This document shows, piece by piece, positions 458-3,938 of a stretch of 5,952 nt of DNA. Where the stretch lies: the IMG/VR virus record IMGVR_UViG_2648501437_000007. One strand, written 5' to 3'. Every line of letters starts with the position of its first letter. Position 1 is the first letter of the stretch. The position numbers and the translations under genes were made by a program. The DNA is from a virus (lineage: Duplodnaviria; Heunggongvirae; Uroviricota; Caudoviricetes). The notes beneath the pieces were generated by a model. That model was given only the letters and a program-made list of their open reading frames with translations. It was not told the origin of the DNA and did no database searches.

Positions 458-3400
458 ATGGGTAAAGGAAGCAGTAAGGGGCATACCCCGCGCGAAGCGA
501 GGGACAACCTGAAGTCCACGCAGCTGCTGAGTGTGATCGATGCCATCAGCGAAGGGCCGGTTGAAGGTCCGGTGGACGGATTAAAAAGCGTGCTGCTGAA
601 CAGTACGCCGGTGCTGGACAGTGAGGGGAATACCAATATATCCGGTGTCACGGTGGTGTTCCGGGCAGGTGAGCAGGAGCAGACACCGCCGGAGGGATTT
701 GAATCCTCCGGCTCCGAGACGGTGCTGGGTACGGAAGTGAAATATGACACGCCGATCACCCGGACCATCACGTCGGCAAACATCGACCGTCTGCGCTTTA
801 CCTTCGGTGTGCAGGCACTGGTGGAAACCACCTCAAAGGGGGACCGGAATCCGTCGGAAGTCCGCCTGCTGGTTCAGATACAGCGTAACGGTGGCTGGGT
901 GACGGAAAAAGACATCACCATTAAGGGCAAAACCACCTCGCAGTATCTGGCCTCGGTGGTGGTGGATAACCTGCCGCCGCGCCCGTTTAATATCCGGATG
1001 CGCAGGATGACGCCTGACAGCACCACAGACCAGCTGCAGAACAAAACGCTCTGGTCGTCATACACCGAAATCATCGATGTGAAACAGGGCTACCCGAACA
1101 CGGCACTGGTCGGCGTACAGGTGGACTCGGAGCAGTTCGGCAGCCAGCAGGTGAGCCGTAATTATCATCTGCGCGGACGCATTCTGCAGGTGCCGTCGAA
1201 CTACAACCCGCAAAAACGGCACATACAGCGGTATCTGGGACGGAACGTTAAAACCGGCATACAGCAACAACCCGGCCTGGTGTCTGTGGGATATGCTGAC
1301 CCACCCGCGCTACGGCATGGGGAAACGTCTTGGTGCGGCGGATGTGGATAAATGGGCGCTGTATGTCATCGGCCAGTACTGCGACCAGCCGGTGCCGGAC
1401 GGCTTTGGCGGCACGGAGCCGCGCATTACCTGTAATGCGTACCTGACCACACAGCGTAAGGCGTGGGATGTGCTCAGTGATTTCTGCTCGGCGATGCGCT
1501 GTATGCCGGTATGGAACGGGCAGACGCTGACGTTCGTGCAGGACCGACCATCAGATAAGGTGTGGACCTATAACCGCAGTAATGTGGTGATGCCGGATGA
1601 TGGTGCGCCGTTCCGCTACAGCTTCAGCGCCCTGAAGGACCGCCATAATGCCGTTGAGGTGAACTGGATTGACCCGAATAACGGCTGGGAGACGGCGACA
1701 GAGCTTGTTGAAGATACGCAGGCCATTGCCCGTTACGGCCGTAATGTCACGAAGATGGATGCCTTTGGTTGTACCAGTCGGGGGCAGGTGCACCGCGCCG
1801 GGCTGTGGCTGATTAAAACGGAACTGCTGGAAACGCAGACCGTGGACTTCAGCGTGGGTGCAGAAGGGCTTCGCCATGTACCGGGCGATGTCATTGAAAT
1901 CTGTGATGATGACTATGCCGGTATCAGCACCGGCGGGCGCGTGCTGGCGGTGAACAGCCAGACCCGGACGCTGACGCTCGACCGTGAAATCACGCTGCCA
2001 TCTTCCGGCACCACGCTGATAAGCCTGGTTGACGGAAGTGGCAATCCGGTCAGCGTGGAGGTTCAGTCCGTCACTGATGGCGTGAAGGTAAAAGTGAGCC
2101 GTGTTCCTGACGGCGTTGCCGAGTACAGCGTGTGGGGGCTGAAGCTGCCGATGCTGCGCCAGCGCCTGTTCCGCTGCGTGAGTATCCGTGAGAACGACGA
2201 CGGCACGTATGCCATCACCGCCGTGCAGCATGTACCGGAAAAAGAGGCCATCGTGGATAACGGGGCGCACTTTGACGGCGACCAGAGCGGCACGGTGAAT
2301 GGTGTCACGCCGCCAGCGGTGCAGCACCTGACCGCAGAAGTCACCGCAGACAGTGGGGAATATCAGGTGCTGGCGCGCTGGGACACGCCGAAGGTGGTGA
2401 AGGGCGTGAGCTTCCTGCTTCGCCTGACCGTGGCAGCGGACGATGGCAGTGAGCGGCTGGTCAGCACGGCCAGGACGACGGAAACTACATACCGCTTCAC
2501 GCAACTGGCGCTGGGAAATTACAGGCTGACAGTCCGGGCGGTAAATGCGTGGGGACAGCAGGGCGATCCGGCATCGGTATCGTTCCGGATTGCCGCACCG
2601 GCAGCACCGTCGCGGATTGAGCTGACGCCGGGCTATTTTCAGATAACCGCCACGCCGCATTTTGCGGTTTATGATCCGACGGTACAGTTTGAGTTCTGGT
2701 TCTCGGAAAAACGGATTGCTGATATCAGGCAGGTTGAAACCAGCGCGCGTTATCTTGGTACGGCGCTGTACTGGATAGCCGCCAGTATCAATATCAAACC
2801 GGGCCATGATTATTATTTTTACGTTCGCAGTGTGAACACCGTTGGCAAATCGGCATTCGTGGAGGCTGTCGGTCGGGCGAGCGATGATGCGGAAGGTTAC
2901 CTGGATTTTTTCAAAGGAGAAATCGGGAAAACACATCTGGCCCAGGAGCTGTGGACGCAGATTGATAACGGTCAGCTTGCGCCGGACCTGGCTGAAATCA
3001 GGACGTCCATTACGAATGTCAGCAATGAAATCACGCAGACCGTCAATAAAAAACTGGAAGACCAGAGTGCGGCAATCCAGCAGATACAGAAAGTTCAGGT
3101 TGATACAAATAATAACCTGAACAGCATGTGGGCCGTGAAACTGCAGCAGATGCAGGACGGACGCCTTTATATTGCGGGTATCGGAGCCGGTATTGAGAAT
3201 ACGCCAGCAGGTATGCAGAGTCAGGTGCTTCTGGCTGCTGACCGGATTGCGATGATTAATCCTGCGAATGGCAACACAAAGCCGATGTTTGTTGGTCAGG
3301 GCGATCAGATATTCATGAACGAAGTGTTCCTGAAATACCTGACGGCTCCCACCATTACCAGCGGCGGTAATCCTCCGGCATTTTCCCTGACACCGGACGG

Positions 3401-3938
3401 GCGGCTGACGGCGAAAAATGCCGATATCAGCGGTAACGTGAATGCGAACTCCGGGACGCTCAACAACGTCACGATTAACGAAAACTGTCGGGTTCTGGGA
3501 AAACTGTCCGCCAACCAGATTGAAGGCGATCTCGTTAAAACAGTGGGCAAAGCTTTCCCCCGGGACTCCCGTGCACCGGAGCGGTGGCCATCAGGGACCA
3601 TTACCGTCAGGGTTTATGACGATCAGCCGTTTGACCGGCAAATTGTTATTCCGGCGGTGGCATTCAGTGGCGCTAAGCATGAGAGAGAGCATACTGATAT
3701 TTACTCCTCATGCCGTCTGATAGTGCGGAAAAACGGTGCTGAAATTTATAACCGTACCGCGCTGGATAATACGCTGATTTACAGTGGTGTTATTGATATG
3801 CCTGCCGGTCACGGTCACATGACGCTGGAGTTTTCGGTGTCAGCATGGCTGGTAAATAACTGGTATCCCACAGCAAGTATCAGCGATTTGCTGGTTGTGG
3901 TGATGAAGAAAGCCACCGCAGGCATCAGTATCAGCTGA
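458..3938 (+). pseudogene. J: Host specificity / tail-tip (central tail fibre) protein J, lambda gpJ family; reading frame interrupted by a one-base frame change near 1211-1224, giving two overlapping ORFs (458-1351 and 1293-3938)
   Basis: ORF 458-1351 begins MGKGSSKGHTPREARDNLKSTQLLSVIDAISEGP, which I recognise as the N-terminus of lambda J. ORF 1293-3938 continues with J-like sequence including a fibronectin-III-like segment (about 2300-2600) and ends ...[10 protein letters not shown]. The two ORFs overlap by 59 nt in different frames. The downstream frame is open back to a TGA at 1152-1154 and the upstream frame runs to TAA at 1349-1351, so the switch lies in 1155-1351; protein continuity (NYNPQ in the first frame, YSGIWDG in the second) places it at about 1211-1224. 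GGAG at 446-449 is a plausible RBS. Combined length about 1160 aa, as expected for gpJ (lambda 1132 aa, from memory). Whether the frame change is a real mutation or an assembly error cannot be decided from the sequence. Confidence 0.85.

Follow-up and report, generated by a model that had tools for sequence, protein, structure and literature searches.

A mosaic tail-tip gene J in a degraded lambda-like Escherichia coli prophage carries a receptor-binding domain of the 1A2/VT1-Sakai class

The window, meaning the whole 5,952 bp stretch of DNA analysed here, contains the tail-tip gene J of a degraded lambda-like Escherichia coli prophage. Relative to lambda, this J contains a real and sharp mosaic break, and the junction tracks a protein-domain boundary, not base composition. 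[quoted passage not shown] The junctions and the domain architecture are direct observations, as are the phylogenies of the modules and the near-identity to the natural donor type of 1A2. An initial annotation, made from the letters alone, had already proposed a swapped receptor-binding region; this was correct in substance and is already known. That lambdoid phages exchange the distal part of J in modular fashion is textbook knowledge. The features referred to below, in window coordinates, are as follows.

458 to 3938, plus strand: J, the tail tip or central tail fibre gene (1159 codons if repaired).
458 to 2917, plus strand: segment A, comprising the hub, FNIII/Ig-1 and FNIII/Ig-2, of the lambda/434/phi21/cdtI lineage.
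1222, plus strand: extra C causing the J frameshift (GGCA-ATACAG to GGCACATACAG), from the alignment with the intact J of strain 12A.
2633, no strand: GC changepoint in J (0.598 to 0.508), near the Ig_J/Ig_J_second boundary (~nt 2600).
2917/2918, no strand: mosaic junction relative to lambda and 434, from DNA mismatch lists and protein alignment.
2919 to 3125, plus strand: variant of the alpha-helical shaft (AHS, a name that follows PMC11101478), residues 821 to ~889, from alignments.
3072 to 3458, plus strand: central straight fibre or beta-prism (Pfam Phage_Tail_Tip), residues 872-1000, E=2.2e-31.
3369 to 3473, no strand: second junction zone, a conserved sequence at which the RBD module changes partners.
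3435 to 3935, plus strand: receptor-binding module of the '1A2/VT1-Sakai' allelic class, residues 993-1159.
3543 to 3935, plus strand: Ig-like RBD (Pfam Ig_GpJ_C), residues 1029-1159, E=2.5e-37.
3957 to 3984, plus strand: terminator-like hairpin and T-run between J and lom.
4006 to 4605: lom, downstream of J.
4757 (start): N-terminal stf gene, downstream of lom.

Six Pfam domains are found in J, in the order FNIII-A_GpJ, Phage-tail_3, Ig_J, Ig_J_second, Phage_Tail_Tip and Ig_GpJ_C. The N-terminal hub domains of gpJ are present (PF24801, E=1.2e-41; PF13550, E=1.2e-42), and PF24421 (residues 610-714), PF24489 (716-818), PF09327 (872-1000) and PF12421 (1029-1159) all score far over the cut-off. 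The protein thus has the two successive FNIII/Ig domains, then the shaft and prism, then the C-terminal Ig-like RBD that characterize gpJ, and it matches gpJ entries in the PDB. The gene order is K/I, J, lom, stf; upstream of J the window is interrupted by IS5, but at the syntenic site of strain 12A the genes K and I stand in front of J. Phages 434 and 21 have annotated terminators in the corresponding place between J and lom.

An intact full-length reading frame, which gpJ requires, is lacking. One extra base breaks J into ORFs 458-1351 and 1293-3938 (297 aa and 881 aa, respectively), and the shortened product of 881 aa was seen in this contig only. The frameshift was placed by alignment with the J of 12A and by a three-way comparison with a paralogous J, and the extra C sits among window-unique variants clustered at 1177-1222. 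The whole window matches the closed genome of O111:H2 strain 12A at 99.3 %, and an intact 1159-aa J is found there at the syntenic site. A programmed frameshift was ruled out because that copy is intact, and the frameshift may be either a genuine pseudogene mutation or a draft-assembly error.

The last base shared with lambda and 434 is nt 2917, and the first difference, nt 2918, is the third base of Gly820; amino acid divergence from lambda gpJ begins at residue 821 (nt 2919). Against lambda, a mismatch-free DNA run of 50 nt (2868-2917) is followed by dense mismatches from 2918. With the extra C at 1222 removed, residues 1-820 are 97-98 % identical to lambda gpJ (94-100 % in every 50-residue window), and after residue 820 the identity drops to 16-50 %, in agreement with the initial annotation, which gave near-identity to about nt 2900 and only loose similarity beyond it. 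The junction is where the second FNIII/Ig domain gives way to the alpha-helical shaft. A different history from that of lambda is supported for everything distal to residue 820.

In 100-nt windows, the DNA of segment A is 86-100 %, mostly 92-99 %, identical to lambda, 434, phi21 and cdtI, but only 50-94 %, mostly 60-85 %, identical to VT1-Sakai, Stx2a_JNE122137 and JLK-2012. VT1-Sakai turns from divergent to near-identical to the window at nt 2583. Two of the junctions lie on Pfam borders, one between Ig_J and Ig_J_second (aa 714/716) and one at the end of Ig_J_second (aa 818).

Compared with lambda and 434, the shaft that follows is longer by 28 residues (four heptads), located at approximately nt 2964-3056; its helical nature is predicted from homology and its extra length from the alignments. 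Residues 821-905 share 37-39 % identity with lambda and 434 (37 % with lambda), and 99 % with phi21, cdtI and VT1-Sakai. Over the prism (residues 906-992) the window shares 77 % identity with lambda and 95-100 % with phi21, cdtI and VT1-Sakai, and the lower part of the prism is conserved in all J types compared. Most E. coli prophages carry the long-shaft allele, and its reassortment is not tied to that of the RBD. In lambda, the alpha-helical shaft refolds into beta-sheet on tail opening. It is conceivable, though we think it unlikely, that the four-heptad extension is a functional variant of length or trigger. If it were, a long-shaft J could set another stand-off distance or opening threshold, for example on O-antigen-bearing wild hosts, and the short shaft of lambda would be the exception.

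A second change of relatives occurs in the 3369-3473 zone. In Stx2a_JNE122137 and JLK-2012 the mismatches to the window go from dense to sparse after 3364/3368, and in cdtI they go from sparse to dense after ~3467. The fusion points of the engineered 1A2 and A8 chimeras lie inside the same stretch, which runs across the end of Phage_Tail_Tip (aa 1000) and lies ~25 residues before Ig_GpJ_C. The RBD (residues 993-1159) is identical to that of VT1-Sakai at 165 of 167 positions and to those of JLK-2012 and Stx2a_JNE122137 at 166 of 167. Identity falls to 71 % for phi21, 66 % for A8, 48-49 % for 434 and 46-48 % for cdtI (ranges over two alignment methods); at 46 % over the last 167 residues, the RBD is not of the lambda class.

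The PDB homologues of the tip are 9wca ('A8 gpJ 713', E=6e-128) and 8xcj (lambda gpJ713-LamB, E=8e-107). In a large homologue search, all 8,000 of the 8,000 scored candidates were under the E-value threshold, and among the 120 matches listed almost all were E. coli or Shigella proteins with 98-100 % identity. Structure prediction of the C-terminal domain, which the initial annotation had recommended, was performed for residues 993-1159 with single-sequence AlphaFold2, but the pLDDT was 39.5 and the model was discarded; homology points to an Ig-like fold.

The earlier reading of a recombinant J with a receptor-binding module of a different allelic class therefore holds, but not its assumption of a single module. 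Judging by the sequences compared, at least two modules of J, the shaft/prism and the RBD, reassort independently. Shaft type and receptor class occur in all four pairings, namely short/LamB (lambda), long/LamB (phi21), short/OmpC (434) and long/1A2-type (this J), and the 1A2 chimera, which joins a short shaft to an RBD of the window's type, is functional.

Base composition gives a different picture from the alignments. The hand counts made earlier were correct (68.3 % GC at 2401-2460 and 42.5 % at 3001-3120), but the GC step is not at 2900-2950 as had been claimed. A maximum-likelihood single changepoint in J falls instead at nt 2633, ~285 nt upstream, and its strength was reached by 0 of 300 block permutations. 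In lambda J the best changepoint is the corresponding base (J nt 2175, 0.593 to 0.532), and nt 2633 falls within sequence 92-98 % identical to lambda; hence the step is common to lambda and lies inside lambda-like sequence. Between 2641 and 3300, the GC content of 60-nt bins oscillates between 0.42 and 0.60. The 42 % GC at 3001-3120 is an amino acid composition effect, as this trough is an N/K/Q/I/E-rich helical segment in which the second codon positions are responsible (GC2 0.22-0.34), and GC3 (0.62-0.66) is equal to that of lambda. The antisense ORF at 1551-2936 does exist. However, its end had been taken as a sign of lost GC-rich codon bias, and it does not mark the junction because the frame is stop-free from 3593 down to 1553, with 2936 merely the first in-frame start codon, and because the same antisense frame is open in lambda J (J nt 933-3051).

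These data also bear on whether the GC drop reflects a horizontally acquired, compositionally foreign receptor-binding cassette, which we regard as improbable. Such a cassette would fit the overall GC values of 0.586 for 458-2917 and 0.512 for 2918-3938, as well as the GC3 of the last 100 codons (0.46-0.56, compared with 0.62-0.64 in lambda). However, the changepoint is not at 2918, lambda J changes at the same base, the deepest trough is due to GC2, and the lower-GC block starts with FNIII-2, which is lambda-identical. Over the distal part as a whole, GC3 (0.58) is a little below that of the corresponding part of lambda (0.64), and the lower-GC foreign module envisaged earlier is not shown. 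Receptor-binding proteins do evolve fast, and the return of identity to lambda to 82-92 % (protein windows) in the prism could suggest one continuous, unevenly constrained lineage, in which diversifying selection, without recombination, changed the distal third in place. Against this, DNA identity falls from 100 % to <20 % within a few bases at the junction, near-identical (99 %) copies of each segment occur in phages that are 35-50 % diverged in the other segments, and even the conserved prism is merely 80-88 % identical to lambda in DNA, compared with ~96 % upstream. The incongruent relatives of the segments effectively refute in-place divergence, and we give it hardly any credence. Equally little credence is given to the junction being an artefact of stitching paralogous J copies of one genome into a short draft contig. 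The window is indeed one entire draft contig, E. coli genomes contain a median of 2-4 J-like places, and a patch at 1117-1778 bears alleles of a paralogous J. However, the arrangement of nt 212-5952 is found as a single aligned piece, at 99.2-99.3 % identity, in three closed genomes, nt 1790-3938 are 100 % identical to the syntenic J of 12A, and the same distal module is present in VT1-Sakai and PPompW phages. For the 2917/2918 and 3369-3473 junctions, the closed genomes with this arrangement refute a chimeric assembly; stitching may account only for the 1117-1778 patch and the frameshift.

By its RBD sequence, the J of the window belongs to the class of VT1-Sakai and of the OmpC-using gpJ-1A2. 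The gpJ-1A2 protein (Brodel et al., Nature 2024, PMC11338833) is codon-optimised and combines the short shaft and prism of lambda with a tip, the natural donor type of which is the J of VT1-Sakai (Sp15) and PPompW prophages, and its legible translation agrees with the VT1-Sakai type, including K1076 and T1157. A tblastn search of the window's J against OCR-derived 1A2 and A8 DNA gave only 40-59 % matches, fragmented because of OCR frameshifts, and was replaced by a frameshift-tolerant protein-to-DNA alignment. In this alignment, 195 of 207 legible codons are identical to gpJ-1A2 over aa 942-1159, though exact identity cannot be claimed for a sequence taken from an OCR-processed supplement with 11 frameshift errors. 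The swapped part contains two real differences (window to 1A2, R1076K and S1157T), which are exactly those of VT1-Sakai; its other mismatches are garbled OCR text or impossible stop codons. Four further mismatches precede the fusion point, in sequence derived from lambda.

In MG1655 lacking lamB and ompC, 1A2 delivers DNA via EDL933-type OmpC (PMC11338833; 10.1101/2025.02.28.640725). It does not use K-12 OmpC (PMC11338833) and is active on most natural OmpC variants tested (PMC11338833; 10.1101/2025.02.28.640725). On this resemblance, a receptor other than LamB, as the initial annotation had expected, is very likely for the window's J, and OmpC, in its O157/EDL933 form, would most likely be the porin; that this exact allele uses it is a prediction from its sequence. 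The tip could instead bind LamB or some other receptor, should the likeness to 1A2 not be transferable, and we judge this unlikely. In the gpJ family, receptor choice can flip with very few changes: phi21, with an RBD 71 % identical to that of the window, natively uses LamB, and one substitution adds OmpC (PMC11336670), while the RBDs of A8 (OmpC) and phi21 (LamB) are 82 % identical, and coarse similarity is therefore no guide to receptor class. The window's RBD also departs from the 1A2/VT1-Sakai type at R1076 and S1157. However, both of these substitutions are conservative (K/R and T/S), the remaining 165 of 167 residues are the same, the R1076/S1157 variant is carried by JLK-2012 and by Stx2a phages of O157 and O55 hosts, and 1A2 tolerates natural OmpC variation as noted above. 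A receptor-prediction preprint was set aside, as it covers Drexlerviridae-type GpJ and is uninformative for lambda-type tips. Phage phi330 is a long-tailed EHEC phage that uses OmpC, and a literature search for phage PhiR55_1 gave no match.

Several characterized J proteins are available for comparison. Lambda gpJ (PDB 8IYK, 8XCJ and 8XCK), a LamB binder, occupies the same place before lom/stf and has the same six-domain Pfam architecture, with a prism and Ig-like RBD homologous to those of the window, but it differs in its shorter shaft, its RBD and, as predicted here, its receptor. Docking of the gpJ trimer on the porin and the subsequent tail opening have been described (PMC11101478), and presumably apply to J of the window's type. 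A8 gpJ (PDB 9wca/9wcb) is the best-scoring solved structure by sequence; unlike 1A2, A8 also uses K-12 OmpC (PMC11338833). Phage 21 has the same long shaft/prism allele as the window (95-99 %). The RBDs of 434 and cdtI belong to the same fold family but carry insertions (173 residues compared with 167 in the window), and 434 has a short shaft. The J of 434, a classical host-range determinant specific for OmpC, uses this porin (PMC11101478), and if the 434 and 1A2 types both use this porin, different loop sets would be involved.

Under the patchwork origin that we favour, homologous recombination at conserved stretches near domain boundaries would have brought together the hub and both FNIII/Ig domains (nt 458-2917) from the lambda/434/phi21 lineage, the helical shaft and beta-prism (2918 to ~3440) as the 'long-shaft' allele common to phi21, cdtI and VT1-Sakai, and the last 167 codons (3435-3935) from the RBD class of VT1-Sakai (Sp15), JLK-2012 and many Stx2a phages. 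In an intact phage, the trimeric Ig-like tip would dock on a trimeric outer-membrane porin and the tail would open as in lambda. Because the gene is frameshifted, this function is hypothetical in the present strain, and a full-length product would be expected only if the draft assembly is wrong about the extra base.

Of 5,426 complete E. coli genomes, 3,781 contain the RBD allele of the window and 98 that of lambda, with all lambda copies at least 99 % identical; the five lambda-RBD genomes listed are laboratory K-12, B and DE3-type strains. A megablast search of the same 5,426 genomes with the lambda RBD recovered no copies of the window's class. The direction of exchange implied by the initial annotation is therefore misleading, since the tip of the window is the common E. 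coli prophage allele and that of lambda the rare one.

Engineered lambda particles already make use of the tip type described here, in the form of the OmpC-targeting gpJ-1A2, and the structure of the related chimera A8 has been solved. The finding consequently carries little weight as a discovery and is useful as a correction, in that the junction lies on a domain boundary, two modules are exchangeable and the lambda tip is rare. In host recognition, lambda is unrepresentative of its own family.

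The J gene of the window, which encodes the tail-tip protein gpJ, contains a real mosaic junction. For the comparison with lambda gpJ, an extra C at nt 1222 was removed, and residues 1-820 were then found to be 94-100 % identical to lambda in every 50-residue window. In the next 50-residue windows identity falls to 50, 16 and 28 %. At the DNA level, a mismatch-free run at 2868-2917 gives way to dense mismatches from 2918 on. The break proposed in the initial annotation is thus both real and sharp. Residue 820/821 is where the second FNIII/Ig domain ends and an alpha-helical shaft begins, a name taken from the lambda structure papers.

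Two other features had been taken as markers of this junction, namely a drop in GC content and the end of an antisense ORF. The GC contents counted by hand were correct (68.3 % at 2401-2460 and 42.5 % at 3001-3120) and the antisense ORF at 1551-2936 is present, but neither marks the junction. In a likelihood scan of J, the single best GC changepoint was nt 2633 (0.598 to 0.508), with a score reached by 0 of 300 block permutations. This is near the border between Pfam Ig_J (610-714) and Pfam Ig_J_second (716-818), which are the two FNIII/Ig domains. The same scan placed the best step in lambda J at J nt 2175 (0.593 to 0.532), the base homologous to 2633. The step therefore precedes the homology break by approximately 285 nt and lies where identity to lambda is still 92-98 %. 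The trough at 3001-3120 (42 %) has a GC2 of 0.22-0.34 and a lambda-like GC3 of 0.62-0.66, and reflects second codon positions, i.e. an N/K/Q/I/E-rich helical segment. The antisense frame is stop-free from 3593 to 1553, with 2936 merely the first start codon, and is likewise open in lambda J.

The window was also compared with seven annotated phages using 100-nt windows, mismatch lists and protein segments. Although the distal third had been viewed as one swapped module, two modules with differing relatives were found, namely the shaft with the beta-prism (residues 872-1000) and the C-terminal receptor-binding module (RBD, residues 993-1159). Segment A (458-2917) shares 86-100 % DNA identity (mostly 92-99 %) with lambda, 434, phi21 and cdtI but only 50-94 % (mostly 60-85 %) with VT1-Sakai, Stx2a_JNE122137 and JLK-2012. 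The shaft and prism form segment B (2918 to ~3440). Protein identity to phi21, cdtI and VT1-Sakai is 99 % for the shaft and 95-100 % for the prism, but to lambda and 434 only 37-39 % for the shaft and 74-77 % for the prism. The window shaft has 28 additional residues, exactly four heptads. The prism, though conserved as protein, shares only 80-88 % DNA identity with lambda, compared to ~96 % upstream. Segment C, the final 167 codons (3435-3935), is identical to VT1-Sakai, JLK-2012 and Stx2a_JNE122137 at 165-166 of 167 residues, but identity is only 46-49 % with lambda, 434 and cdtI, 71 % with phi21 and 66 % with A8, an engineered lambda gpJ chimera.

The second junction falls in a conserved stretch, nt 3369-3473. 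In the mismatch lists, Stx2a_JNE122137 and JLK-2012 are near-identical to the window after 3364/3368, and cdtI is divergent after ~3467. An additional junction relative to VT1-Sakai is found at ~2583, near the GC step. Near-identical copies of each segment occur in phages that are strongly diverged elsewhere in J, which is a signature of recombination, and divergence of the distal third in place was rejected on the same grounds.

Brodel et al. (Nature 2024; PMC11338833) engineered two chimeras of lambda gpJ, 1A2 and A8, and give their DNA sequences in the supplement. In both, the shaft and prism are still those of lambda, and the switch comes immediately ahead of 'NVNANSG' in the conserved stretch, inside the natural junction zone (3369-3473). 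Because the text of these sequences includes OCR errors, a frameshift-tolerant alignment was needed for 1A2. Over window residues 942-1159, 195 of 207 legible codons were identical. Four of the mismatches precede the fusion point, where the chimera is lambda sequence, and two in the swapped part are genuine, namely K for R1076 and T for S1157; the others there are garbled text or impossible stop codons. As these are the exact residues at which VT1-Sakai departs from the window, the 1A2 donor is of the VT1-Sakai type, to which the window tip is identical at 165 of 167 residues. Particles carrying 1A2 deliver DNA to MG1655 lacking lamB and ompC if EDL933 OmpC, though not K-12 OmpC, is expressed, and 1A2 and A8 jointly cover 21 of 23 natural OmpC variants (PMC11338833). 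A follow-up preprint targeted O157 strains with 1A2 (10.1101/2025.02.28.640725). The solved structures closest by sequence are 'A8 gpJ 713' (9wca, E=6e-128) and then lambda gpJ713 with LamB (8xcj, E=8e-107).

Given this near-identity to the donor type of an OmpC-using chimera, OmpC is most likely the receptor of the window tip, and the earlier guess of a receptor other than LamB was very likely correct. However, receptor choice in the lambda-type gpJ family can be switched by a few substitutions. Phage phi21, with an RBD 71 % identical to that of the window, natively uses LamB, and one mutation adds OmpC (PMC11336670); A8, which uses OmpC, is 82 % identical to phi21.

All four combinations of shaft and tip exist (INDEPENDENCE of shaft and tip). 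Lambda has a short shaft and uses LamB, phi21 a long shaft and LamB, and phage 434 a short shaft and OmpC, while the window J combines a long shaft with a 1A2-type tip. Shaft length is therefore not linked to receptor class. The synthetic 1A2 chimera, which has a short shaft, is functional (PMC11338833).

The window is the complete draft contig JHSO01000129.1 (assembly GCA_001266005.1). It covers distal tail genes of a lambda-like prophage of E. coli and contains the following features.

Features of the window
1-211, IS5 end, the terminal part of the element, at the left contig edge
212-390, small low-GC ORF remnant, cut by IS5
415-435, terminator-like hairpin directly before the J ribosome-binding site
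458-3938, J
3957-3984, strong terminator-like hairpin with T-run, after J
4006-4605, lom
4709-4748, strong terminator-like hairpin with T-run, after lom
4757 to contig end (5952), N-terminal part of the side-tail-fibre gene

The best matches were three closed E. coli genomes (99.2-99.3 % identity over 212-5952 in one aligned piece). In O111:H2 strain 12A, the syntenic J is intact (1159 codons) and preceded by tail assembly genes. In the window, a piece of IS5 stands in place of these expected genes; positions 1-211 were recognised as an IS5 end, and in strain 2015C-4498 an annotated IS5 family transposase adjoins the piece matching the left part of the window. The region between I and J (212-457) is of low GC content (38-43 %) and its ORF remnant, represented in 12A by an intact 112-aa hypothetical protein but by no gene in lambda, looks like a moron insertion. 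The hairpins at 3957-3984 and 4709-4748 bracket lom as a separate unit, and phages 434 and 21 have annotated terminators at the equivalent positions. In the side-tail-fibre gene, the N-terminal domain is followed by an Ala/Ser/Glu-rich stretch and then ~125 residues of collagen-like G-X-Y repeats (~nt 5490-5870). These account for the 65-73 % GC and extreme AT skew of this part, and are a plausible reason for the assembly break at the contig end.

The window J is split by the single extra C at nt 1222, and the truncated product occurs in this contig alone. The extra C is at the edge of a patch (1117-1778) with 28 differences from the syntenic 12A J and flanks that are 100 % identical. At 20 of these 28 sites the window has the allele of a paralogous J in 12A (1132 aa, with an A8/phi21-like tip, at 1.93 Mb), and a further seven, the extra C among them, are specific to the window and group together at 1177-1222. 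The patch, with its frameshift, arose either by gene conversion between the J genes of co-resident prophages or from reads mixed in short-read assembly. Split or truncated J genes are likewise annotated in VT1-Sakai (3000-6472 in the phage record) and JLK-2012 (312-3785), both with the tip class of the window, though the breaks are at positions that differ from the window frameshift. Inactivated J genes seem to be frequent among resident prophages with this VT1-Sakai/1A2-class tip.

Of 5,426 complete E. coli genomes, 3,781 contain the window RBD DNA (~2,300 records with at least 95 % identity), and the long-shaft segment is present in 3,567. The lambda RBD DNA (lambda 4401-4904) was found in only 98 of the 5,426, all with at least 99 % identity, and all five carriers among the matches listed are laboratory K-12, B or DE3-type strains. 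No diverged relatives of the lambda tip DNA were detected by megablast in these 5,426 genomes, whereas identities to the window allele are spread over 80-100 % across its 3,781 genomes. A protein search reached saturation, almost all of the matches listed being E. coli or Shigella proteins of 98-100 % identity. It is therefore the lambda allele that is unusual. The window tip is a very common allele of a class whose function has already been characterised.
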